Shown here piece by piece: positions 12,370-62,837 of a stretch of 64,000 nt of DNA. Source of the stretch: Candidatus Doudnabacteria bacterium. GTDB lineage: Bacteria > Patescibacteriota > Doudnabacteria > UBA920. The notes under the pieces are model-generated. The model was not told the DNA's origin. It was given only the letters and a program-made list of their open reading frames with translations, and did not search any database. The stretch is from assembly GCA_963768175.1 (NCBI GenBank), contig CAVYGQ010000001.1:5908-69907 (forward strand). The letters are read 5' to 3'. The translations under genes and the position numbers were made by a program. How positions within the stretch are numbered: position 1 is the stretch's first letter; each line of letters begins with the position of its first letter.

Positions 12370-12531
12370 TTAGTAACTATTAAAGTTTCGGATGGTGAAT
12401 AGGTAGAGCGCGGATTTTTTAAGTCCACGTTTACATATTTGTCATCCTGAAATTCACCCCGGTCAAATAAAAATTTCTTTGAAATTTTTGATTCGCTTCG
12501 CGAATCATTTGACGGGGTAAAAAGGATTAAG

Positions 12532-32584: not shown

Positions 32585-33925
32585 ATGAATTACTCAACAA
32601 TAAAGGAAGAAGATCCGGAAATTTATAATTTAATTCAAAAAGAAAAGCAAAGGCAAAAGGAGGGTTTGGAATTAATTCCTTCCGAAAATTACACTTCAGC
32701 CGCGGTTATGGAGTGTATGGGTTCCATTTTAACCAACAAATATTCCGAAGGCTACGCCAAAAAACGCTATTACGGCGGCAATGAGTTTATAGACGGCATT
32801 GAAATTTTGGCCATAGAGCGCGCTAAAAAATTATTCGGCGTGCCTCACGCCAATGTCCAGCCTTACAGCGGCAGTCCGGCCAACCTGGCCGTTTATATGG
32901 CCACCTGCCAGCCCGGCGACAACATTATGGGTTTGGCTTTGCCCGAAGGGGGGCATTTAACCCACGGCTGGAAAGTTTCGGCCACGGCGATATTTTATAA
33001 AAGTACGCAATACCACGTGCGCGAAGACGGCCGGATAGATATGGATGAGCTTTGGAAGCTGGCCAAAGAGCACAAGCCAAAATTAATCTGGGCCGGCGCC
33101 ACGGCTTACCCGTATATATACGAATACGATAAATTTGCGGAAGTGGCCGACAGCGTCGGGGCTTTTTTGGCCGCGGATATCGCCCACGTGGCCGGGCTTA
33201 TCGCCGCCGGCGCGCATCCCAGTCCGGTGCCTTACGCGCACATTATAACCACCACAACCCATAAAACTTTGCGCGGGCCACGCGGGGCCATGATTATGGT
33301 TACGCAAAAAGGGTTGGATAAAGATCCGGAACTTGGCGATAAAGTAGATAAAGCGGTGTTCCCGGGGCTCCAGGGCGGCCCGCACGACCACCAAACCGGG
33401 GCAATTGCCATCGCGCTTAAAGAAGCCGCAACCCCTGAATTTAAAATCTACGGACATCAAATTGTCAAAAACGCGAAAGCTTTGGCCAAATCGTTAAAAG
33501 CCAATGGCATAAAATTAGTGGCTAACGGCACGGAAAACCATTTGCTGCTTCTTGATTTGGTGCCGGTATTCGGTCCGGGCGGCGGGATTTTTGTCTCCGA
33601 AGCTTTGGATGTGGCGGCCATGACGGCCAATAAGAACACAATCCCCAAAGACCCTTCGTCTCCTTTTTATCCCAGCGGAGTCCGTATGGGTAGTCCGGCT
33701 TTGACCACGCGCGGTTTTAAGGAGAAAGAAATGGAAAAAGTGGGGGAGTGGGTTGCCCGGGTAATAAAAAATATAAGCCACTATAAATTGCCGGCGGCCA
33801 AAGAAGAACGCGCCGCTTACATAAATAAGTTCAAAAAGGAAATTAAAGATAACCCCGAGTTGAAAAAGATCAGGGCCGAAATAAAAGAATTAACCGTAAA
33901 TTTTCCGGTCCCGGGAATAGAATAG
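32585..33925 (+). CDS. glyA: Serine hydroxymethyltransferase
   Basis: LELIPSENYTS...TTTTHKTLRGPRG PLP-lysine region. Confidence 0.95.
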   Translation: MNYSTIKEEDPEIYNLIQKEKQRQKEGLELIPSENYTSAAVMECMGSILTNKYSEGYAKKRYYGGNEFIDGIEILAIERAKKLFGVPHANVQPYSGSPANLAVYMATCQPGDNIMGLALPEGGHLTHGWKVSATAIFYKSTQYHVREDGRIDMDELWKLAKEHKPKLIWAGATAYPYIYEYDKFAEVADSVGAFLAADIAHVAGLIAAGAHPSPVPYAHIITTTTHKTLRGPRGAMIMVTQKGLDKDPELGDKVDKAVFPGLQGGPHDHQTGAIAIALKEAATPEFKIYGHQIVKNAKALAKSLKANGIKLVANGTENHLLLLDLVPVFGPGGGIFVSEALDVAAMTANKNTIPKDPSSPFYPSGVRMGSPALTTRGFKEKEMEKVGEWVARVIKNISHYKLPAAKEERAAYINKFKKEIKDNPELKKIRAEIKELTVNFPVPGIE

Positions 33926-33933
33926 AACAAAAC

Positions 33934-33965
33934 TTCTTAAAACCGCGGCCGCGGTTTTAAGAAGT
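33934..33965. terminator. Palindromic terminator CTTCTTAAAACCGCGGCCGCGGTTTTAAGAAG (the same core recurs at 51216-51247)
   Basis: Perfect GC-rich palindrome flanked by A- and T-runs. Confidence 0.6.
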
Positions 33966-33973
33966 AAGGTAAT

Positions 33974-34582
33974 ATGCTTATTGACATTGTCATTTTGCCG
34001 CCCAAAAATATAAGATCAAAAGTCGGCAAAAAAATCCAAGCTGTGGCAAAAGATTATCCGCATCGTTATATTGTGGACAATGTTAAACTTATCCCGCATT
34101 TAAGTTTGTTCCATTTAAGGGTGTCAAAACCGAAGTTGAAGAAGTTAGGACAAGCAGTTGGGAAAATTGTCGGAAAATATCAACCATTCCGATTAAAGTC
34201 CGTTCGTATTGTTAAGTATGAAAAAGATACGGTTTTACATTTTAGAATTTCAAAACCCGCGATTCTTTCCAAATTGAACAGGGAAATTACGGAAAAGTGC
34301 CGTAAATTTAGGGATGGAGAGCTATTTGCTTGGTATAAAAATCACCCTTTCCCGAAGCAGGACAGGCCTTATATAAAAAAGTATGGGTCCTATTGGAGCA
34401 CAGGCAAAAATTTTGATCCCCATTTAACAATGGTTAAATACAAATCTCCTTCAGACGGGCCGAAGATGATTAAGAAAATGGGTAAATTTGGTTTTAATTT
34501 TTTGGCTGACACCGTTGCTTTGTGTGAGATAAATAAACACGGGCAAGTTTATAAAGTTTTAAAACAGTTTAAATTAAAATAA
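33974..34582 (+). CDS. 2H phosphoesterase superfamily protein (LigT-like)
   Basis: Two H-x-T/S-x motifs (PHLSLFH and DPHLTMVK). Confidence 0.55.
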   Translation: MLIDIVILPPKNIRSKVGKKIQAVAKDYPHRYIVDNVKLIPHLSLFHLRVSKPKLKKLGQAVGKIVGKYQPFRLKSVRIVKYEKDTVLHFRISKPAILSKLNREITEKCRKFRDGELFAWYKNHPFPKQDRPYIKKYGSYWSTGKNFDPHLTMVKYKSPSDGPKMIKKMGKFGFNFLADTVALCEINKHGQVYKVLKQFKLK

Positions 34583-43948: not shown

Positions 43949-44584
43949 ATGCCAAGAAAATCCAGAAGTTACGATAAACATATCCCGGCGCCCGACCCGA
44001 AATACGGCAGCGTAAAATACGCTAAATTTATTAATTATATAATGGAGCGCGGGAAAAAGAACGTGGCGCGCAAGATTTTTTACGATGCCTTGGATATTGT
44101 CGGCGAAAAAGTCGTTGCCGCGCCTGTGGCAGCTCCTGCTCCGGTAAAGCCGGCTATGGAGGTTAAAGGTAAATCAGCCGATAAAAAATCCGTCATTGAA
44201 GCTAAAACGGTTGAAGAAAAGCCGCAAGTCCATGCCGAGGGAAAACAGAAAGCGCAGGACAAAAAGTTGGACGGACGTACGGTTTTTGATATCGCATTAA
44301 AAAACGTGGCGCCGATTATGGAATTAAAATCACGCAGAATCGGCGGCGCCAACTACCAGGTGCCTATGGAAGTGCAGGAACCGCGCAAAACAACCTTGGG
44401 CATGCGCTGGCTTTTGACCGCGGCCAGGAGCAAAAAAGGCATGCGCATGGCCGAGCGTTTGGCCGGCGAGATAATGGATGCTTACAACAAGACCGGCATA
44501 GCCATGAAGAAGCGCGAAGACGTCCACCGCATGGCCGAAGCCAACAAGGCTTTCGCGCATTTTGCGAGGTTTGGCAGGAGATAA
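43949..44584 (+). CDS. rpsG: 30S ribosomal protein S7 with a ~55-aa A/P/K/E-rich low-complexity insertion
   Basis: S7 ends conserved (…[16 protein letters not shown]...[18 protein letters not shown]). The insert [24 protein letters not shown]...QDKKLDG is absent from canonical S7. Confidence 0.9.
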
Positions 44585-44606: not shown

Positions 44607-46799
44607 ATGTCAAGAGAATATCCTATTGAAGTTACAAGAAATATCGGCATTATCGCCCACATAGATGCCGGCAAAACAACCGTCACCGAAGGCGTTTTGT
44701 ATAACACCGGCATGGTCCACAAAATCGGCGCGGTGCACGAAGGTGATACCGTTACCGACTGGATGGAGCAGGAGCGCGAGCGCGGCATTACCATTACCGC
44801 CGCGGCCGTAACCTGCTATTGGGTGCCAAAATTTATTAAATTGGCTAACGACATTAATCCCGTTAGAAGTCAGACGCCAGGGGCGTCTGCTGGTGCGCGA
44901 GCGCACCAGACTTCTAACGGGATAAAGCATAAAATAAATATTATAGACACTCCCGGCCACGTGGACTTTACCGTGGAAGTGGAGCGGTCTTTGCGCGTGC
45001 TGGACGGCGCGGTGGTCGTGTTTGACGGCAAAATGGGCGTGGAGCCGCAAAGCGAAACCGTGTGGCGCCAGGCTGACAAATACCACGTGCCGCGCATGTG
45101 CTTTATCAACAAAATCAACCAGACCGGCGGAGACTTTTACAAGTCGCTGGACTCAATCCATAAAAGATTATCGCCGAACGCTTTTCCCATCCAGTTGCCC
45201 ATAGGCTTTGAAAAAGACATTTGCGGGGTGGTGGATTTGATAAACATGAAAGCTTACACTTACAAGGATTTTACGGACAAGGAATTTACCGTGGGCGAAG
45301 TTCCGGCCGACATGCTGGAAAAGGCCAAAGAATGGCGCCACAAGCTTTTGGAAAAAGTCGTGGAGAGCGATGACGTAATAATGGAAAAATATTTGTCCGG
45401 ACAGGAGCTAACGGAAACCGAAGTTTTAACGGCTATCCGCAAGGCCGTGCAGGGCGGACAGTTCTTCCCGGTTTTGGGCGGAGACGGCCGGGGCATTATT
45501 GTGCAGACTATTTTGGATGCCGTAACCAACTTTTTGCCGAGCCCGGTAGACCGCGGCAATATCAAAGGCCATGACCTTAAAACTGGTATGGAGATAGAAA
45601 GAAAGCCCAGCGATGACGAGCCTTTTACCGCTTTGGCTTTTAAAATCGCCACCGATGCTTTTGTCGGAAGGTTGTGTTTTTTCCGCGTTTACGCCGGGCA
45701 TTTGGAAGCTGGCTCCTACGTGCTTAACGCGCGAACGGAAAATAAAGAGCGCGTGGGGCGCATTGTGCGCATGAAGGCGGATGAACGCGAAGAAGTCAAG
45801 GAAGTTTTTGCCGGCGATATTTGCGCGCTGGTCGGGCCCAAAGATACTTTTACCGGAGACACTTTGTGCGACGTGGAAAAACCCATTGTCCTGGAAAGAA
45901 TCAAGTTTGCCGAGCCGGTAATCCACATGTCCATTGAGCCCAAGACCAAAGCCGACCAGGAAAAAATGGGCATCGCGCTTTCCAAACTCGCCGAAGAAGA
46001 CCCGACTTTTAAACTTTCCACCAACGAGGAAACCCAGCAGACCATTATTGGCGGGATGGGCGAACTCCATTTGGAAATCATTGTGGACAGGATGAAGCGC
46101 GAATTTAAAGTGGAAGCCAATGTGGGCAAGCCGGAAGTCGCGTATAAAGAAACCATCAAAAAAACGGCCGAAGCCGAAAGCAAATACATCCGCCAAACCG
46201 GCGGCCGCGGGCAATACGGGCATGTTTATTTGCGCGTAGAGCCGCTGCAGCGCGGTAAAGGCTATGAGTTTGTGGATGAAGTTGTCGGCGGCGTTATTCC
46301 CAAAGAATACATTAAGCCGATAGACAAAGGCATCCAGGAAAGCGCGGCTAACGGCGTCATTGCCGGATATCCTTTGGTGGACTTTAGGGCCGCGGTATTC
46401 GATGGTTCCTACCACGAAGTTGACTCTTCGGAAATGGCGTTTAAAATTGCCGCTTCCAAGGGCTTGCAGGACGCGGTCAAAAAAGCCGACCCGGTTATTT
46501 TGGAGCCGATTATGAAGGTAGAAGTTACCACGCCGGAAGTCAATATGGGCGACGTGATTGGGGATTTGAATTCCAAGCGCGCGCAGATAAATGAAATGAC
46601 GGGCAAGTTGCATTTAAAAGTTATTGATGCGATGGTGCCGCTTTCTGAAATGTTTGGTTATGCCACGGCTCTTCGTTCCATGACACAAGGACAAGCTAGC
46701 TACACTATGGAGTTTGACCATTACGCCGAAGTGCCTAGGAACGTCGCGGCCGGGATTATTGAGAGCAGGGCCGGGATTAATGTACGTAAGGGGATGTAA
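44607..46799 (+). CDS. fusA: Elongation factor G, with a 22-codon in-frame palindromic insertion in the G domain
   Basis: [14 protein letters not shown]...DTPGHVDF. Insert 44857-44923 encodes ...[22 protein letters not shown]. Confidence 0.95.
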
Positions 46800-46843
46800 A
46801 CCGCTGAATGAACGCGGATTGCTACGCTGATTAGACGCTGAAT

Positions 46844-46868
46844 AAGGGCGGCCTACGGCCGCCCTTTT
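46844..46868 (+). terminator. Terminator AAGGGCGGCC-tac-GGCCGCCCTTTT after fusA
   Basis: Seen directly in the sequence. Confidence 0.6.
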
Positions 46869-47139
46869 ATATAGTTGTCATTGCGAGGAGCCTCGAGTGC
46901 ATCCGAGAGGCGACGAAGCAATCTTATTTTGTGTCATTCCGGAATTTTGCGGAGCAAAATATCCGGAATCTAGATTCCCGCTTTCGCGGGAATGACATGA
47001 ATATTCTGGAAAAAGAAAAAGCCCGCTGCGCCGTGGAGGTTCGCAGTAGGCAGTTGAGCCGCAGTTCCGTCGGAACCGCCGGGAGGCGGGTGGGGGAAAA
47101 GGGCGCGGATATGTGGCGACCACTCGGGCAGTGTCGGGG

Positions 47140-47274
47140 TTATTGGTATTTCTTTTCCAGGCACCGAACTGCATAACCGATTGCCATCCCCATTGCGAGT
47201 AAGCCCGTGACGGGCCAAGTCAGATTAAGCAGGTAATGGCCGGCCAACAGACCGAGACCCATTATGGCCCACAT
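47140..47274 (-). CDS. Small hydrophobic membrane protein (44 aa)
   Basis: Strong RBS (AAAGGAGGCTGT-ATG) and two predicted TM segments. Confidence 0.35.
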   Translation of the reverse strand: MWAIMGLGLLAGHYLLNLTWPVTGLLAMGMAIGYAVRCLEKKYQ

Positions 47275-47395
47275 ACAGCCTCCTTTCGTGGAACACCAAG
47301 AATAGCAAAGAGACAAGCAGTTGTAAAGGCTTAAGAACAGGGGTATAATCAATAGCAGATATTAGGATATTGATTGATATTAAGATATTAAACAC

Positions 47396-47746
47396 ATGAC
47401 AAATCTAAATGATTTAATTAATCTAGCTAAAGCCGATGGAGGCAAGTTTTTTGTCATTGACGAGAGCGGGGATGCTAAGTTGGTGATAATGAGCGTGGAA
47501 GATTACCAGCGCCTGCTACTCGGCAAGCTCCAGCGCCAGGTAATGGATGTGGAAAGCATCAACAAGGAAATTTTAAAAGCCCAGCTGGAAGAGCAGCCTT
47601 CGTCGCCCGCACCGCAAACCAAAGGCCCGACTGTCGTCAACAGGCCGCAAGTCCATCAACAGCGCAATTCCGTTGATTTGCGCGCGGAAGTTATAGACCC
47701 GAGTTTTGATTTTGAAGGCCCGAAGGTGGAAATAGATGATTTGTAA
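47396..47746 (+). CDS. Phd/YefM-like antitoxin-fold protein with an unusual C-terminal tail (orphan, no toxin adjacent)
   Basis: N-terminal KFFVIDESGDAKLVIMSVEDYQRLL resembles the Phd/YefM fold. Confidence 0.4.
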   Translation: MTNLNDLINLAKADGGKFFVIDESGDAKLVIMSVEDYQRLLLGKLQRQVMDVESINKEILKAQLEEQPSSPAPQTKGPTVVNRPQVHQQRNSVDLRAEVIDPSFDFEGPKVEIDDL

Positions 47747-47898
47747 AACGCTGATTTCACGCTGATAAGGACGCTGAAATTACGCTGATGACAGGCGTGC
47801 CCATTCCGGAATTTTTGATTGAAATAAGATTATCATCGGCAATCAAAAATATCCGGAATCCAGAAACATATACATTATCATCTTAAAATCAAAATAGT

Positions 47899-48195
47899 GT
47901 GCAAGAAAAATTATATTACGTTTACATATTAGCCAACCACAAAAACGGGACTTTGTATACCGGATTTGCAAGCAACCTTGTGCAAAGGACATTTACCCAT
48001 AAAAACGATATTGTTAAAGGTTTTACGCAGAAATATCAAGTTCATCGGCTGATGCATTATGAAGTTTTTGAAGACCGGGACGAAGCCCTAAAACGCGAAA
48101 AACAGCTTAAAAAATGGCATAGAAAATGGAAACTGGAGCTTATTGAAGAAACGAATCCCGATTGGAAAGATCTTTACGATAAAATTGCAGGTTAA
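47899..48195 (+). CDS. GIY-YIG nuclease family protein (UPF0213/YhbQ-like)
   Basis: YYVYILANHKNGTLYTGFASNLVQRTFTH GIY-YIG motif. Confidence 0.7.
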   Translation: MQEKLYYVYILANHKNGTLYTGFASNLVQRTFTHKNDIVKGFTQKYQVHRLMHYEVFEDRDEALKREKQLKKWHRKWKLELIEETNPDWKDLYDKIAG

Positions 48196-48276
48196 ATTAT
48201 TTATTCTGGACCCCGGATATTTTCCAGACGATGAATTGCTTAAACTGAAAAATTCCGGGGTGGAGACACCTGTTTT

Positions 48277-49002
48277 ATGAAAAGGATACTGTTAGCATCA
48301 ATAACAATTTTAACAATTTTTCTTTTAGCCGCCGGATGCTCTAAAACGCAGCCGGCGGTTCAGACTGCGCCGGTAAGCCAAAATCAACCGTCACAAAACC
48401 AGCAGGCAAATCTATCACCGGTTTCCGCGACCACTACCCCACAAAAATCGGCAGCTTCCACTACGCCGCTGACCCTGAATGTTTACAACAATGCCGCGGA
48501 GCATTTTAAGGTTTTATATTTAAGTTATTTTAAACTTTTTACTCCGGCAAGTATAAAAGCAAATAATCCCAAGAGCGTAAATTTTTCCGCCTGCGTGCCG
48601 TATGGAATAATGCCGGGCTGGTGTTTTGTGTTAAATAATCAGCCTTATGCGGATACAAATTTGGAATCGGCGGGAGTAGCGATATCAATCTTAAAAAATA
48701 AAACCGGTATTGCCGATTGCGGGAATTTTAGCGCGCAGGATTTGGAGGGCGGCCATACCACAAGCCCGGTGCAGGCCAACGGCGTGGTTTTTGTTACGGC
48801 CACCGCCTCCGACGCCGGAGCCGGCAATTTTAGCGAAACTCATTTTAACAGGGCATTTTACGGAACAACCTGTTATGAAGTAGATGAAACTGCCAGGTGG
48901 GCTAACGCGGAGGTTTTTGACCCGCCAAGAACGGAGTTTGACCGGACAGATGTTTGGGGCAAGCTGGATGTTTTGAGGAACGGCTTTCAATTTGTTAAAT
49001 AA
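48277..49002 (+). CDS. Lipoprotein (lipobox LAAGCS) with a Q/N-rich linker
   Basis: Signal peptide plus Cys, then TAPVSQNQPSQNQ... Confidence 0.55.
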   Translation: MKRILLASITILTIFLLAAGCSKTQPAVQTAPVSQNQPSQNQQANLSPVSATTTPQKSAASTTPLTLNVYNNAAEHFKVLYLSYFKLFTPASIKANNPKSVNFSACVPYGIMPGWCFVLNNQPYADTNLESAGVAISILKNKTGIADCGNFSAQDLEGGHTTSPVQANGVVFVTATASDAGAGNFSETHFNRAFYGTTCYEVDETARWANAEVFDPPRTEFDRTDVWGKLDVLRNGFQFVK

Positions 49003-49600
49003 TGAAATGAGGAAATATTTTGTTATCGCATCAATTTTCCTTTTAGCCACCGGCTGTGCAAAACAGCCCGTCTTGCCCAGCGCGGGCCGAGGCGGACAAC
49101 CCCTAATTCAGACTGCGCCGATAAGCCAAAACCAACCGGCGCAAAATCAGGCGACATCCACGCCGGATCAAACCGCGACTTCCACTACAATATCGCTTCC
49201 GGTTAAGTATGATAATGCCCAATACGGATTTATTTTTTTTCTGCCCGCCGACTGGCAGGGGTATTCCATTTTGAACAAAACATGGCAAGGCACTCCCGCG
49301 GCTTCCGAAGGCGATGTAAATGCCGTTAAAGTCAGCGGACCTTTAATTTATATCCGCAATCCAAACTGGACAACCAAAAATCCTTATGAAGATATCCCGG
49401 TTGCGGTTTTTACACCGGATCAATGGGATCAAGTCCAAGCAGGACAGCTTGATGTTTACGCCGCCCCGTTCCCGCCATCCGAGCTCGGGCGTAATAAGAA
49501 TTATGTTTTTGGCCTGCCTCCCCGTTATAATTACGATTTTCGTGCAGGATTTGAGGAAGTCGAAAAGATAATGCAGAATAATCCTTTGGTTGGTTATTAA
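48992..49600 (+). CDS. Lipoprotein (lipobox LATGCA), a paralog of the preceding lipoprotein in its N-terminal region
   Basis: Signal peptide plus Cys, then TAPISQNQPAQNQ... Confidence 0.55.
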   Translation: MLNNEMRKYFVIASIFLLATGCAKQPVLPSAGRGGQPLIQTAPISQNQPAQNQATSTPDQTATSTTISLPVKYDNAQYGFIFFLPADWQGYSILNKTWQGTPAASEGDVNAVKVSGPLIYIRNPNWTTKNPYEDIPVAVFTPDQWDQVQAGQLDVYAAPFPPSELGRNKNYVFGLPPRYNYDFRAGFEEVEKIMQNNPLVGY

Positions 49601-49675
49601 TAATCATGGATTTAACCCCATTAGAAGTCAATGCCTAAAGGCATCAGTTGGCGCGATGCGCGCCAGATTTTTAAC

Positions 49676-49705
49676 AGGGTTGACAAATTTGATAAATAAC
49701 TTTAA
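49676..49705 (+). promoter_or_regulatory. Sigma70-like promoter for tuf (TTGACA-17-TAAAAT). The leader carries a copy of the CTTCGCTAAAGCTTCG repeat.
   Basis: Seen directly in the sequence. Confidence 0.5.
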
Positions 49706-49924
49706 AATAAGTTGTAGTTAAAAAATTAATTTTTGCTCTGGATTCCAATACGCCCCTGCTTCGCTTCCCCCTTCGCTAAAGCTTCGGGGGACAAGAAAGC
49801 TTCGCAGGGCAGGGAAAAAAAGAGATAAACCCTTGGTCTTGTGCCAAAGATCGATCAGGCACAGTGCCTAGGGTTTCTCGGGCAAATATCGCCCCCAGAA
49901 TGGGGGAAAAGAAAGGTTAAAACA

Positions 49925-51184: not shown

Positions 51185-51389
51185 ATGTACGTTTGTTTAT
51201 CTGGTTGACTACAACTGCTTAAAACCGCGGCCGCGGTTTTAAGCAGTAACTTCTTCTTTCCACTCGCAAATGTTTGTGGGCGGGAAGAAGGGGACGAACA
51301 AACAGCGTTCGTCCCAAAGTGCATACCCTGAACCGCTAAAGAGCGGTTCAGCCGCTCGGATTGCCCGAGCAGCTCTGCCAGGATTTTGG

Positions 51390-53856: not shown

Positions 53857-53866
53857 CGCCAGGCTT

Positions 53867-53967
53867 GGCGTCATCCTGAGTCCGCTCTAAGCAAATCTAG
53901 GCGGACGAAGGATCTCATCAAAGTTTAAGAGATTCCTCGGTCGGCTGCACTCCCTCGGAATGACGCC
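53867..53967. repeat. MITE-like element, GGCGTCATCCTGA family, between rplC and rplD
   Basis: ggcgtcatcctgagt...ctcggaatgacgcc. The ORF-track start of rplD at 53960 lies inside it. Confidence 0.7.
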
Positions 53968-53989: not shown

Positions 53990-54669
53990 ATGAAGACGAA
54001 TCTTTACAATCAAAAAGGTGAAACTATCGGCGATGTGGAATTAAACCCAAAGATTTTTGAGGTTAAACCCAACGAACATCTTTTAGCCGAAGCGGTAAGG
54101 ATACAATTATCCAATTCCCGCCAGGGCACCAGCAATACTAAAACCCGCGGCGAAGTATCCGGCGGCGGCAAAAAGCCCTGGAAGCAAAAAGGCACCGGCC
54201 GCGCCCGCGCAGGCTCAAGCAGAAGCCCGATTTGGCGCCACGGCGGCATTACTTTTGGCCCCGCTCAAACCGCAATTGGGAATTAAAAATCAACAAAAAG
54301 GCCAAGACCGCGGCGCTGTTTATGTCCCTTTCCGACAAGGCCAAAGAAAAGCAGTTTTTTGTCATTGACCAAATTGTTTTAGAAAACCCCAAGACCAAGG
54401 AATTCGTCGCAGTGTTAAAAGGTTTGGAAGCGAAGCTTTCCGTCGAAGGCGGATCCGCCTTTGGCGGAAAGAATTTGGGCAAGAAGCAAATGCTTATTCT
54501 TCCAAGAAAAGACGCAAAGCTAGTCCGTGCTACCAGCAATTTACAATCGGTCAATACCGTTTTGGCAAACAGCCTGAACCTGGTGGATGTAATAACGGCT
54601 AACAGCATTATCGCGCTTAAAGACAGTTTGCCGGTCATAGAGAAAGTATATCTTAAAAAAAGCAAGTAA
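53990..54669 (+). CDS. rplD: 50S ribosomal protein L4, with an apparent 1-nt frameshift near 54265-54290 and an in-frame GGCGGATCCGCC insert (54445-54467)
   Basis: Frame 2 [10 protein letters not shown]...[13 protein letters not shown] then frame 1 ...[20 protein letters not shown]... The shift lies at gggaattaaaaatc. Confidence 0.85.
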
Positions 54670-54670
54670 A

Positions 54671-54768
54671 ATGACAAAAACGACGGAAATGACAAAAATG
54701 AGCAAAAATAAACTACAGTTCTAATTTTTGTCATTTATTTAATTTTTTTAATTTTTGTTCATTAATTT
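54671..54768. repeat. Repeat family R1 (~97 bp: ATGACAAAAA..GAAATGACAAAAATGAGCAAAAATAAACTACAGTTCTAATTTTTGTCATTTATTTAATTTTTTTAATTTTTGTTCATTAA), immediately 5' of the rplW start. A near-identical copy lies at 61279-61378, 5' of rpsN.
   Basis: Two copies are >90% identical. Each contains the internal inverted repeat ATGACAAAAAT / ATTTTTGTCAT. Confidence 0.75.
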
Positions 54769-55150
54769 TATGGCCATTTTTTCCAAAAAACCAGAAACTG
54801 ACGAGAAGGTTGAATATAAAACGGATGACAAACCTTCCGCTACTGTCGGCAATGGCCCGACAATAAAAATCCCTACCATTTTAATCCAGCCCAGAATTTC
54901 CGAAAAAGCGGGTAGCTTAGCGCAAATGAACAAGTATGTTTTTTTGGTCGCAAAAGCCGCCAATAAAGTAGAGGTCAAAAAAGCGGTGGAAGCGGTTTAT
55001 AAAGTCAAAGTCACGCAAGTTAACGTTATAAATAATTATGGGAAGAAAAGAAATTATGGACAGACAAAAGGCGTAACCTCGGATTTTAAAAAAGCAATAG
55101 TAACACTAAAAGCTGGAGATAAAATAGAAGGGATAACGGAGACTATTTAA
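54769..55150 (+). CDS. rplW: 50S ribosomal protein L23
   Basis: ...VFLVAKAANKVEVKKAVEAVYKVKVTQVNVIN. Start placed at ATGGCC by analogy with the identical repeat/start junction at rpsN. Confidence 0.85.
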
Positions 55151-55246
55151 ATGACAAGAATGACATGATTGAGCAAGAATGACAAGGATCGCTGCAGTCA
55201 AATCATGTCAATCATTTAAATCTTTTAATTCATGTTCAATTAATCT
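55151..55246. repeat. Repeat family R2 (ATGACAAGAATGACA...CTGCAGTTAAATCATGTCAATCATTTAAATCTTTTAATTCATGT), immediately 5' of the rplB start. Other copies at 57775-57868 (5' of rpsC) and 62739-62837 (5' of rplR).
   Basis: Three copies share a >80% identical core ending within ~20 nt of the start codon. Confidence 0.75.
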
Positions 55247-57138: not shown

Positions 57139-57765
57139 ATGACCAATAAGGCATCAACAACCGAATCAGGAAAGTTAGTCACGGCGCACGCCCGCGATCT
57201 TCATATTGCTCCCAGAAAAATGCGCTTGGTAACTAACTTAGTCAAAAATATGAACGCCTTGGATGCCTTGGTCCAGCTTCAGCATACCGACAAAAAGGCT
57301 TCGCCGATGTTAATTAAGTTAATCCAGTCTGCCGTGGCGAACGCCAAGAATAATTTTTCGCTTGACCCCCAGCATTTGTTTATTAAGGAATTGACCTGTG
57401 ATATGGGCAAAGTAATGAAGCGCTACTTTCCCCGCGCCCGCGGCAGCGCTTTTGAGATTAGGCGCAAAATGAGCCATGTGAACATTGTTTTGGAAGAGCG
57501 CAAGAAAGCCAAAGCCAGCAAGGTCAAGGCTGGATTTCTTACAAAGCCGAAAGCCGAAGAGAAAAAAGTCCAGAATGTAGATCAGCAGGCTGCCGTTAAT
57601 AAAGAACCCTCCTTCGCTCCCGACTTCGCTAAGGCTTCGTCGGGCAAGAAAGCTACGGAGGGCAAAGAAGTCAAAAAGAGCCAGGTGTTTAGGACGGACG
57701 AGCAGAAAAAAATGAGTACCGCGGCAAATAAGAGAAGGCTGTTTAACAGGAAGTCCGGAGAGTAA
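57139..57765 (+). CDS. rplV: 50S ribosomal protein L22 with a ~90-aa K-rich C-terminal extension containing the DFAKASSGKK repeat
   Basis: ARDLHIAPRKMRLV...QSAVANA L22 core. The extension includes EPSFAPDFAKASSGKKATEG (57600-57665). Confidence 0.9.
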   Translation: MTNKASTTESGKLVTAHARDLHIAPRKMRLVTNLVKNMNALDALVQLQHTDKKASPMLIKLIQSAVANAKNNFSLDPQHLFIKELTCDMGKVMKRYFPRARGSAFEIRRKMSHVNIVLEERKKAKASKVKAGFLTKPKAEEKKVQNVDQQAAVNKEPSFAPDFAKASSGKKATEGKEVKKSQVFRTDEQKKMSTAANKRRLFNRKSGE

Positions 57766-57868
57766 AATAATTGACAAAATTGACATGAATGAACAAGAAT
57801 GACAAAAATTTACTGCAGTTAAATCATGTCAATCATTTAAATCTTTTAATTCATGTCCAATCAAACCT

Positions 57869-59355: not shown

Positions 59356-59367
59356 CAATCCAGTTTT

Positions 59368-59444
59368 GGCGTCATCCTGAACGCAGTGAAGGATCTTAAA
59401 TATAGAGAAAAGAGATTCTTCGCGTACCGCTTAGGAATGACGCC
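59368..59444. repeat. MITE-like element, GGCGTCATCCTGA family, between rpmC and rpsQ
   Basis: ggcgtcatcctgaacgcagtgaaggatct...ttaggaatgacgcc. Confidence 0.7.
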
Positions 59445-60212: not shown

Positions 60213-60225
60213 GAACTACCAGATT

Positions 60226-60298
60226 GGCGTCATCCTGAACGCAGTGAAGGATCTCCTCAAAGGAAAAGAGATTCCTCGCCCCGCTCGGGATGACGTCG
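60226..60298. repeat. MITE-like element, GGCGTCATCCTGA family, between rplN and rplX (near-identical to the copy at 59368-59444)
   Basis: ggcgtcatcctgaacgcagtgaaggatctc...ctcgggatgacgtcg. Confidence 0.7.
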
Positions 60299-60320
60299 AT
60301 GGGGGCAATAAATTTATTAT

Positions 60321-60742: not shown

Positions 60743-61282
60743 ATGGAAAGACTTCAGGAACAATATAATAAGAAAATCGTCCCGGCTTTGAAAGAGAAGT
60801 TTGGTTTTAAGAATATTATGCAGGTGCCAAAAATCCTGAAAGTCGTGGTTAACGCCGGCGTGGGCAAATTTAAGGACGATAAAAAGAAAGTTGACCAGAT
60901 AGTGGAAGACATTAAAAAGATTACCGGGCAGGCGCCCATAAAGGCCAAAGCCAGAAAATCTATTGCCGGTTTTAAAGTCAGGGAAAACCAGGTTGTCGGG
61001 ATTGTCTGCACTTTAAGGGGTTTTAGGATGTATAGCTTCTTGGATAAACTGGTAAACGTGGCTTTACCAAGGGTCCGCGATTTTCAGGGCATTTCACTGG
61101 GCGGTTTTGACGGACGCGGTAATTATCATTTAGGCATTAAGGAGCATCTGGTTTTTCCGGAAATTTCCTCGGAAAGCCTGGAAAACATTTTTGGCCTGGA
61201 AGTATCGGTTGTCACCAACGCGAAGAAAGATGCGACTGCCGGGGAATTATTAACATTAATGGGATTCCCATTCAAGAAATGA
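60743..61282 (+). CDS. rplE: 50S ribosomal protein L5
   Basis: MERLQEQYNKKIVPALKEKFGF... Confidence 0.95.
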   Translation: MERLQEQYNKKIVPALKEKFGFKNIMQVPKILKVVVNAGVGKFKDDKKKVDQIVEDIKKITGQAPIKAKARKSIAGFKVRENQVVGIVCTLRGFRMYSFLDKLVNVALPRVRDFQGISLGGFDGRGNYHLGIKEHLVFPEISSESLENIFGLEVSVVTNAKKDATAGELLTLMGFPFKK

Positions 61283-61378
61283 CAAAAACGATGGAAATGA
61301 CAAAAATGAGCAAAAATAAACTACAGTTCTAATTTTTGTCATTTATTTAATTTTTTTAATTTTTGTTCATTAAACTTT

Positions 61379-62734: not shown

Positions 62735-62837
62735 AAAAAATTGACAAGATTGACATAATTGAGCAAGAATGACAAGAATGGACTGCAGTTAAATCATGTC
62801 AATTATTTAATTCATTTAAATCTTGATCAATCAAACT

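Follow-up and report, generated by a model that had tools for sequence, protein, structure and literature searches.

A Y-shaped palindromic repeat in frame within elongation factor G of Candidatus Doudnabacteria, probably one copy of a dispersed mobile element

The fusA gene of a Candidatus Doudnabacteria bacterium (assembly GCA_963768175.1, contig CAVYGQ010000001.1), which encodes elongation factor G (EF-G), carries an in-frame palindromic element of 65 nt whose single strand folds into a Y. The present analysis of 64,000 nt of this contig (positions 5,908 to 69,907, hereafter the window, in which coordinates without a locus label are counted from the first letter) indicates that this insert is probably a copy of a small mobile repeat, non-autonomous and of the miniature inverted-repeat transposable element (MITE) type, lodged in frame in a tolerant loop of EF-G. 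The repeat is multi-copy and dispersed, occurs in several phyla and lies in frame within many proteins. The family is apparently undescribed: no account of it turned up in a paper library searched by topic, by DNA words and by peptide words.

Results

Sequence and Fold of the fusA Insert

By translation and by BLASTP to listed EF-Gs, the host gene fusA (44607..46799) encodes a protein of 730 aa. The element, defined by a repeat finder, by its fold and by a covariance model, occupies 44858..44922, between the TCYW motif and a 12-residue motif of EF-G; like fusA, it and all of its parts are given on the + strand. Its outer arms, of the kind designated type A, are TCCCGTTAGAAGTC at the 5′ end (44858..44871), translated (N)PVRS(Q), and GACTTCTAACGGGA at the 3′ end (44909..44922), translated (Q)TSNG. 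Both are free of stop codons in the fusA frame, where they read CCC GTT AGA AGT (PVRS) and ACT TCT AAC GGG (TSNG). Between the arms stand two perfect inner hairpins, CAGACGCC-agg-GGCGTCTG (44871..44889) and CTGGTGCGC-ga-GCGCACCAG (44890..44909), the pairs of both of which covary across the family. Comparison with empty sites identifies the flanking tetranucleotides TTAA (44854..44857) and TAAA (44923..44926) as putative left and right copies of a target-site duplication. When these flanks are included, the repeat finder reports outer arms of 18 nt (44854-44871 and 44909-44926) that are 94% complementary, the arms proper being perfectly so.

The original prediction, an in-frame nested palindrome in the EF-G G domain, is borne out in the sequence, including the perfect core of the arms and the perfect inner gacgcc/ggcgtc palindrome; it lacked the second perfect hairpin at 44890-44909. 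It had also put the insertion at 22 codons. Relative to orthologs that lack the insert, the gain is the element plus a putative 4-nt duplication, in all 69 nt or 23 codons (I83-G105).

The element folds as a three-way junction composed of the outer stem and the two hairpins, with zero unpaired bases at the junction and with all 24 of the 24 modelled pairs being Watson-Crick pairs. The predicted energy is −48.1 kcal/mol compared with −20.6 ± 2.9 kcal/mol in dinucleotide shuffles (z = −9.4), and none of 200 shuffles folds as well. Covariance model R1 scores this copy at 81.5 bits (E = 3e-20) on the + strand versus 55.9 bits on the − strand. In the mRNA, the structure would lie ∼250 nt into the gene.

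Presence and Absence Among EF-G Homologs

For comparison we used the 120 closest listed EF-Gs, which share 79-88% BLASTP identity with the window protein and of which the named ones belong to Candidatus Doudnabacteria or Patescibacteria. The insert is missing from 116 of them, nearly all 706-708 aa long and mostly 707 aa, and extra residues at the insert site are found in just three: P0001 (724 aa), P0020 (733 aa), and P0074 (730 aa). Homologous insertions at this site in many distant EF-Gs, the finding that the original prediction named as its refutation, were not encountered, with only these 3 of 120 nearest relatives carrying an insert there. Next to the 23-residue peptide of the window, the insert peptides are IHPVRSQTPEASVGAQSRQTSNG in P0020 and INPVKSGEAGSLSAKFDG in P0001, while P0074 carries a nested, degenerate version. 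In the fusA locus of P0074 (L003, 10227-10317), type-A outer arms (TCCATTAGAAGT / ACTTCTAACGGA) enclose a short second palindrome (CCCCATTAGAGA / TCTCGAACGGGG). Because this insert is nested and replaces ∼6 normal loop codons, the history of the site is more complex than one insertion. A second recovery of the P0001-type insert came from locus L138.

The four insert-bearing EF-Gs, the window protein included, are polyphyletic. When the insert columns are left out, numerous insert-free EF-Gs are closer relatives of each, those nearest to P0001 being 95.5% identical. In a neighbor-joining distance tree of 121 leaves, any two insert-bearing proteins group only in clusters of at least 51 leaves, and the smallest group containing all four has 79. 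Spread of the insert by recombination, examined through the residue that precedes it (PKF versus PRF), was rejected, as the insert-free relatives of P0001 share identical flanks.

Empty and filled sites can be compared directly. Empty fusA sites read GAC-AATAAA-TAT (L127), GAT-GTTAAG-CAC (L126), and GAC-GTAAAG-CAC (L005). The filled site of the window reads GAC-A[TTAA]-65 nt-[TAAA]G-CAT, a clean gain of 69 nt relative to L127, and that of L001 reads GAT-A[TTAA]-50 nt-[TAAA]A-CAT, a clean gain of 54 nt relative to L126; the gain site of both is GAY-R-TWAA-R. The L001 insert has outer arms of a second kind, type B (CCCAGTCAAAT / ATTTGACGGGG), and its hairpins are wholly different from those of the window copy, with an equal Y fold. 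Since the window and L001 inserts have different arm types, and since both types occur in the window genome (see below), at least two independent insertions appear to have taken place at this one site.

The Insertion Site in the EF-G Structure

Solved EF-G structures align with the window protein over residues 1-72 and then again from K107/H108, with the insert in between, in the turn that joins the post-switch I strand to the strand leading into DTPGH (switch II). The gap between the aligned blocks is ∼3-9 residues in solved EF-Gs and 11 residues in insert-free Doudnabacteria. An AlphaFold2 model (54 sequences; mean predicted local distance difference test score, pLDDT, 70.5) has strands at residues 67-72 and 108-115, and residues 81-104 have pLDDT values below 50 and no secondary structure. 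The 23-residue loop is therefore probably disordered, and on the simplest reading the insert forms a tolerated, floppy surface loop at a β-hairpin tip of variable length between the switch regions. The original prediction had stressed how constrained EF-G is as a protein; the site itself is not strongly constrained, being a loop that already varies in length among solved EF-Gs.

A Family of Y-Shaped Repeats

The covariance model was built from 22 copies, and by this model the 64-kb window holds three members of the family, the genic copy in fusA and two intergenic ones. The second (49616..49679, + strand) is a type-A copy of 64 nt in the tuf leader, flanked by TTAA and TTGA, with a score of 55.2 bits (E = 5e-13). 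Together with its flanks (49612-49683) it has the Y architecture and orientation of the fusA copy, with compensatory changes in both inner hairpins, so that a relationship between the two hairpins, already proposed from inspection of the letters, is upheld. The third (12457..12517, + strand) is a type-B copy (CCCCGGTCAAAT / ATTTGACGGGG) of 61 nt in the pnp leader, flanked by TTCA and TAAA, and scores 38.8 bits (E = 2e-8; model span 12454-12521). Its 3′ end lies 14 nt upstream of the pnp start codon, its fold has an energy of −29.6 kcal/mol (z = −5.2), and its arms are those of L001, so that arm types A and B are both present in the window genome. Related Doudnabacteria loci carry further copies in their spacers (L007, 2378-2450; L004, 1590-1663). 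The insert is consequently not a peculiarity of EF-G, as had first been supposed, but one copy of a dispersed repeat found three times in the window and many times in other genomes and proteins.

Across the family, the arms are CCCCGTTAGAAGT or CCCCGTCAAAT and the inner hairpins covary; single elements measure 47-83 nt, and composites reach 184 nt. In both arm types the inner hairpins are hypervariable yet self-complementary. Among type-A copies, 89.5% of alignment cells are paired, as opposed to 33-43% when the partners are slid, 15 of the 24 pairs have changed on both sides, and, of 500 shuffles, not one attained either the paired fraction or the covariation score of the real alignment. Among type-B copies, aligned without gaps over 58 columns, all 11 inner-hairpin pairs have changed on both sides. 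The Y fold is thus conserved by compensatory change. On the canonical strand G-U mismatches number 22 and A-C mismatches 13, counts that do not separate constraint on RNA from constraint on DNA. Owing to the palindromic arms, either orientation reads xPVRS...TSNGx; the other open frame reads PLEV...LLTG, and the third has stops in both arms.

A pattern scan, with one genome per species, was used to search other lineages. Alongside chance matches and an unrelated simple repeat of Bacteroidota, it returned a coherent set of the form (A/G)CCCCG(A)TTAGAAGT ... CAGACTTCTAACGGGG(T/C). The carriers belong to Patescibacteria (Saccharibacteria, Staskawicz-, Nealson-, and Yanofskybacteria), Planctomycetota (Pirellulales, Phycisphaerae, and Sedimentisphaerales), and Nitrospinota. 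Saccharibacteria have several copies per metagenome-assembled genome (MAG), with at least seven loci in one MAG. Inside long open frames we found 17 copies, 12 in the same sense as the host gene and 5 in the opposite sense. Host proteins confirmed by Pfam domains that span or flank the insert include SMC_N, RibD_C, GDE_C (glycogen debranching), PGA_cap, and WD40 proteins, the C-terminal tail of GyrA, a sulfatase, an M48 peptidase, and PAP2; in RibD, two Planctomycetota have the insert at one common site. A metagenome scan for type-B arms yielded at least 120 contigs, with in-frame inserts of the form xPVKS...FDGV among the matches listed, and members of the family occur in more than 100 unrelated contigs overall. 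Two copies are unusual in their setting. In L016 (3854-3982, Pirellulales) a full copy and an adjoining partial one lie in tandem in one open reading frame (ORF), which reads ...SWIQTSNGA...GGSWIQTSNGA..., and in L128 (2299-2352; IMGVR_UViG_3300009431_000021, classed as viral) a type-A copy supplies the last 15 residues (..SPVRSLAAPRLGVKD, then the stop) of a 352-aa ORF on the minus strand.

Flanking Repeats, Length Classes, and Composite Elements

Exact 4-nt direct repeats flank type-A copies far more often than expected by chance: 16 of 50 copies versus 1.2 expected in a first count, and 14 of 25 versus 2.0 expected by permutation, with no signal at any offset other than 0 or any length other than 4. 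Their sequences vary (TGAA, TAGA, TTGA, TAAA, CTGA, CAAG, CTGG, CTCA, and CTTA), as would fit target-site duplications. In 39 of 50 type-A copies, where members of one subfamily are not independent observations, the element length, increased by 4, is divisible by three (classes of 62, 65, 71, 77, 80, and 83 nt), a bias that is consistent with survival in coding DNA.

In Saccharibacteria the repeat occurs as a composite unit of 124-184 nt with outer ends CCCCGATTAGA / TCTAATCGGG, and 13 of 14 such units have ATGA, or else ATGG, on both sides. Insertion was into the 4-bp ATGA in which the stop codon of one gene overlaps the start codon of the next. As ATGA is duplicated, the upstream gene still ends in TGA and the downstream one still begins with ATG, and both remain intact. 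Examples are L022 (2332-2512, reverse-complement strand), L047 (3453-3629), and L107, with composites standing, for instance, before rplM, uvrB, and rpmJ.

Other Repeats and Variable Regions in the Window

The window contains further repeats. One hairpin-forming family, TTGGCGTCATCCTGAACGCAGTGAAGGATCTC ... GAGATTCCTCG, occupies spacers of the ribosomal-protein operon (53859-53946, 59360-59440, and 60218-60300); a stretch of 31 nt is 100% identical in two of its copies, and it resembles another dispersed palindromic repeat. AT-rich intergenic repeats with internal inverted repeats comprise a 97-nt pair that is 99% identical (54669-54765 and 61277-61373) and a 102-nt family of three copies (55144-55245, 57765-57866, and 62735-62836). 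Directly 3′ of tuf lies a perfect 20-nt palindrome, ACTGCTTAAAACCGCGGCCG/CGGCCGCGGTTTTAAGCAGT (51214-51247), with a related one at 33919-33978; these may be terminators or yet another repeat.

The genes next to fusA also vary. The rpsG gene (43949-44584) encodes an S7 protein of 211 aa, compared with 170-193 aa in related Doudnabacteria, the excess being a nonpalindromic low-complexity expansion rich in A, P, K, and E past about residue 55, whose length varies among lineages. The fusA-tuf interval (46800-49840 in the window; also in L001, L005, L006, and L126) holds two to four hypothetical ORFs, a set that differs in each Doudnabacteria locus and lacks Pfam matches except for Gmad2 in L126, so that the str operon is broken by a variable region.

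Discussion

Collectively, these analyses favor a model in which a MITE-like element, with terminal inverted repeats ((T/C)CCCGTTAGAAGT) around two short hairpins and a single strand that would fold into a Y, integrated at a T(T/A)AA tetranucleotide within the codons of the β-hairpin turn between switch I and switch II, apparently duplicating 4 bp. Since the total gain is 69 nt and the arms are stop-free, the fusA frame stays open and the insert would be translated as a loop of 23 residues. This loop would be a recurrent landing site because it unites a T(T/A)AA target and a structure that tolerates insertions. We infer both the mode of transposition and the enzyme that would carry it out. The Y fold may matter for mobility, or may come from hairpin-templated correction, rather than being of use to the host.

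Several observations weigh against this model or fit it less well. The flanks of the window fusA copy, TTAA and TAAA, match at three of four positions, and those of the fusA copy in L004 at none of four. Type-B copies mostly lie between flanks that are conserved and complement each other (TTYA...TRAA), and exact direct repeats flank 10 of 90 of them versus 3.1 expected; integration may therefore differ from that of a simple transposase that duplicates 4 bp. The window and L001 inserts share TTAA/TAAA flanks despite their unlike arm types, which could reflect common descent followed by conversion of the interior. No transposase or autonomous element with these ends was found: ∼1 Mb of fetched loci contained no lone arms bounding a longer element, and a BLAST search of annotated plasmids and phages with the element as query gave chance partial matches only. 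Stop-codon depletion in the element interior gave no clear signal. Finally, we infer from the open frame alone that EF-G protein is made with the loop. As for a parent element, the ends may resemble those of IS1380-type elements (CC ends, duplication of 4-5 bp), a possible lead.

A different view of the same structure is that it is a cis-regulatory device of the host (a pause site, a site for RNase III or other processing, a stabilizer, or an attenuator) acting on the str and other operons and kept as a tuner of EF-G and EF-Tu output. Such a role would accord with the great stability of the structure (−48 kcal/mol) and its retention through compensatory change, with the slightly higher count of G-U than of A-C mismatches on the canonical strand, with the placement of two copies in one operon and of a third ending just before the pnp start codon, and with the placing of Saccharibacteria copies precisely where the stop codon of one operon gene meets the start codon of the next. 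We nevertheless regard it as unlikely, because, of the 120 nearest fusA genes, 116 have no such structure, nor do their tuf leaders, genic copies lie in both orientations (12 in the same sense, 5 opposite), the host genes are unrelated and share no common pathway, and no Rfam family matches. Hosts may have co-opted the structure secondarily; as the origin of the element, such a function is ruled out. Selection at the level of the protein is another candidate, in which the insert would be an adaptive, lineage-specific extension of EF-G contacting the ribosome or a partner, and the palindromic nature of its DNA would be incidental. The insert is indeed in frame and stop-free, four lineages carry one at the same loop, and the ribosomes and translation factors of the candidate phyla radiation (CPR) are known to be unusual. 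However, the peptide is unconserved beyond the part encoded by the arms (a 13-residue stretch in one copy versus SGEAGSLSAKF and EDISNGARAH in others), perfect Watson-Crick pairing at 24 of 24 positions is not expected under selection on a peptide, the element is also intergenic and present in many other proteins, the loop is predicted to be disordered, and the distribution among EF-Gs is polyphyletic; we therefore give this explanation very little weight.

Less probable again is that the insert is taken out before the protein functions, as an intervening sequence, whether through RNA processing with religation where the Y has its base, through translational bypass, or through excision of the peptide, such that mature EF-G would have a normal loop. 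The base of the stem does juxtapose the two junctions, as in bulge-helix-bulge or HAC1-type introns, and CPR rRNA genes carry many insertions. Yet a sequence that is removed would face no constraint on frame or stop codons, and all genic copies found are stop-free and frame-keeping, the element plus its duplication being mostly a multiple of three. Moreover, bulge motifs are absent and the helix is fully paired at the junctions, there is no match to a ribozyme or intron family, and the 23 residues contain no intein motifs. That the insert is an artefact of assembly or a chimera, given that library artefacts can yield palindromes, has a negligible probability in view of related inserts at the fusA site in independent ENA, NCBI, Logan, and JGI assemblies (L138 among them), the presence of the family in more than 100 unrelated contigs, and the intact reading frame. 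Insertion of a MITE-type element remains by far the most probable account.

Among described systems, the closest in behavior are the Rickettsia palindromic elements (RPEs), repeats of ∼150 bp described from Rickettsia (PMC10969869). Like the Y family, RPEs are small, palindromic, dispersed repeats that are both intergenic and in frame in unrelated, often essential genes, where they add a peptide at positions thought to be compatible with protein fold and function (PMC10969869). The Y family differs from them in its size (47-83 nt, with the longer composites), its three-way junction, its two freely covarying hairpins, its 4-bp duplications, and its hosts, which are Patescibacteria, Planctomycetota, and Nitrospinota rather than Rickettsia. 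NCBIfam includes domain models for RPEs, and five insert peptides had no match in NCBIfam or Pfam at E values up to 10; on hosts, size, sequence, and this lack of matches, the Y family does not belong to RPE-1 to RPE-10. A protein-word search with two concatenated insert peptides likewise gave zero candidates.

The Y family also shares much with MITEs such as Correia/NEMIS, ERIC, RUP, and Nezha, which are noncoding and present in many copies, have terminal inverted repeats and target-site duplications, form strong RNA hairpins if transcribed, and occasionally fuse in frame with host ORFs (PMC10969869). Family members are small and noncoding, have terminal inverted repeats, are dispersed in multiple copies, and are represented by empty and filled orthologous sites. 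Each of the four named elements is confined to a genus or family and is usually tied to a known insertion sequence (IS). By contrast, the Y family has arms conserved across phyla and an interior that is hypervariable while preserving structure, and no parent IS was found. With REP/BIME repeats (RAYT, IS200/IS605-like) and PATE it has in common short hairpin-forming repeats with two hairpins per unit, and the conserved tetranucleotide beside the hairpin in type-B copies is akin to the fixed target of single-strand transposases. REPs are 20-40 bp long with a GTAG or CGTC head (PMC3733652). The Y family has no such head, and instead has long, mutually pairing outer arms starting CCCC(G)TTAGAAGT and, in type A, exact 4-bp direct repeats. 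REPs make no target duplication, and membership in the REP/BIME group was rejected on account of the wrong head and the 4-bp duplications.

Several other structured elements were considered. Integron attC sites are imperfect palindromes with the core GTTRRRY / RYYYAAC, in the order RYYYAAC first and GTTRRRY last, and may have a branched center. The Y element resembles this core (GTTAGAA / TTCTAAC), but its boxes are in reversed order (GTT... on the 5′ side, ...AAC on the 3′ side), extrahelical bases and cassette arrays are lacking, and copies lie inside genes; the reversed boxes, the fully paired stem, and the genic location led us to reject this assignment. A hammerhead-like three-way junction was rejected because there is no unpaired core, a bulge-helix-bulge intron because there are no bulges, and a mimic of the 23S GTPase-associated center, with which the element shares UUAGAAG, because this stretch is fully base-paired in the element. 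At gathering threshold, Rfam 15 finds only tRNAs in the whole window, and a sensitive Rfam search of 44780-45000 gave chance sub-threshold matches, the best being 19 bits to a plant miRNA model with a gathering score of 89.

More tentatively, and as a possibility that we would not yet call probable, the family could represent a superfamily, so far undescribed, of Y-shaped mini-transposons that are neutral to the reading frame and span several phyla. A length of 3n+2 plus a 4-bp duplication, together with stop-free arms, would allow such elements to colonize the protein loops and ATGA overlaps of streamlined genomes without killing genes; the self-complementary, hypervariable hairpins would point to strand-specific mobilization that reads structure; and the elements would repeatedly supply new surface loops, to core translation factors as well.

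These analyses explain an odd insertion in a highly conserved bacterial protein as the probable footprint of a mobile repeat, and they extend the phenomenon of protein-coding palindromes, best documented in Rickettsia, to the CPR, Planctomycetota, and Nitrospinota, new hosts whose small genomes are usually called poor in mobile DNA. For annotation, such repeats inflate protein lengths and can mislead alignments of phylogenomic markers such as fusA, and they create spurious small ORFs, for example MTPIRS...QTSNGVYP(V), which begins at the left ATG of Saccharibacteria composites. Furthermore, the family provides natural insertion scans of essential proteins and raises a tractable question, namely which enzyme recognizes a conserved 13-nt arm and a sequence-free Y fold. 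The interest of the family would be greater should the mobilizing enzyme, and the part played by the Y fold, prove to be unconventional.

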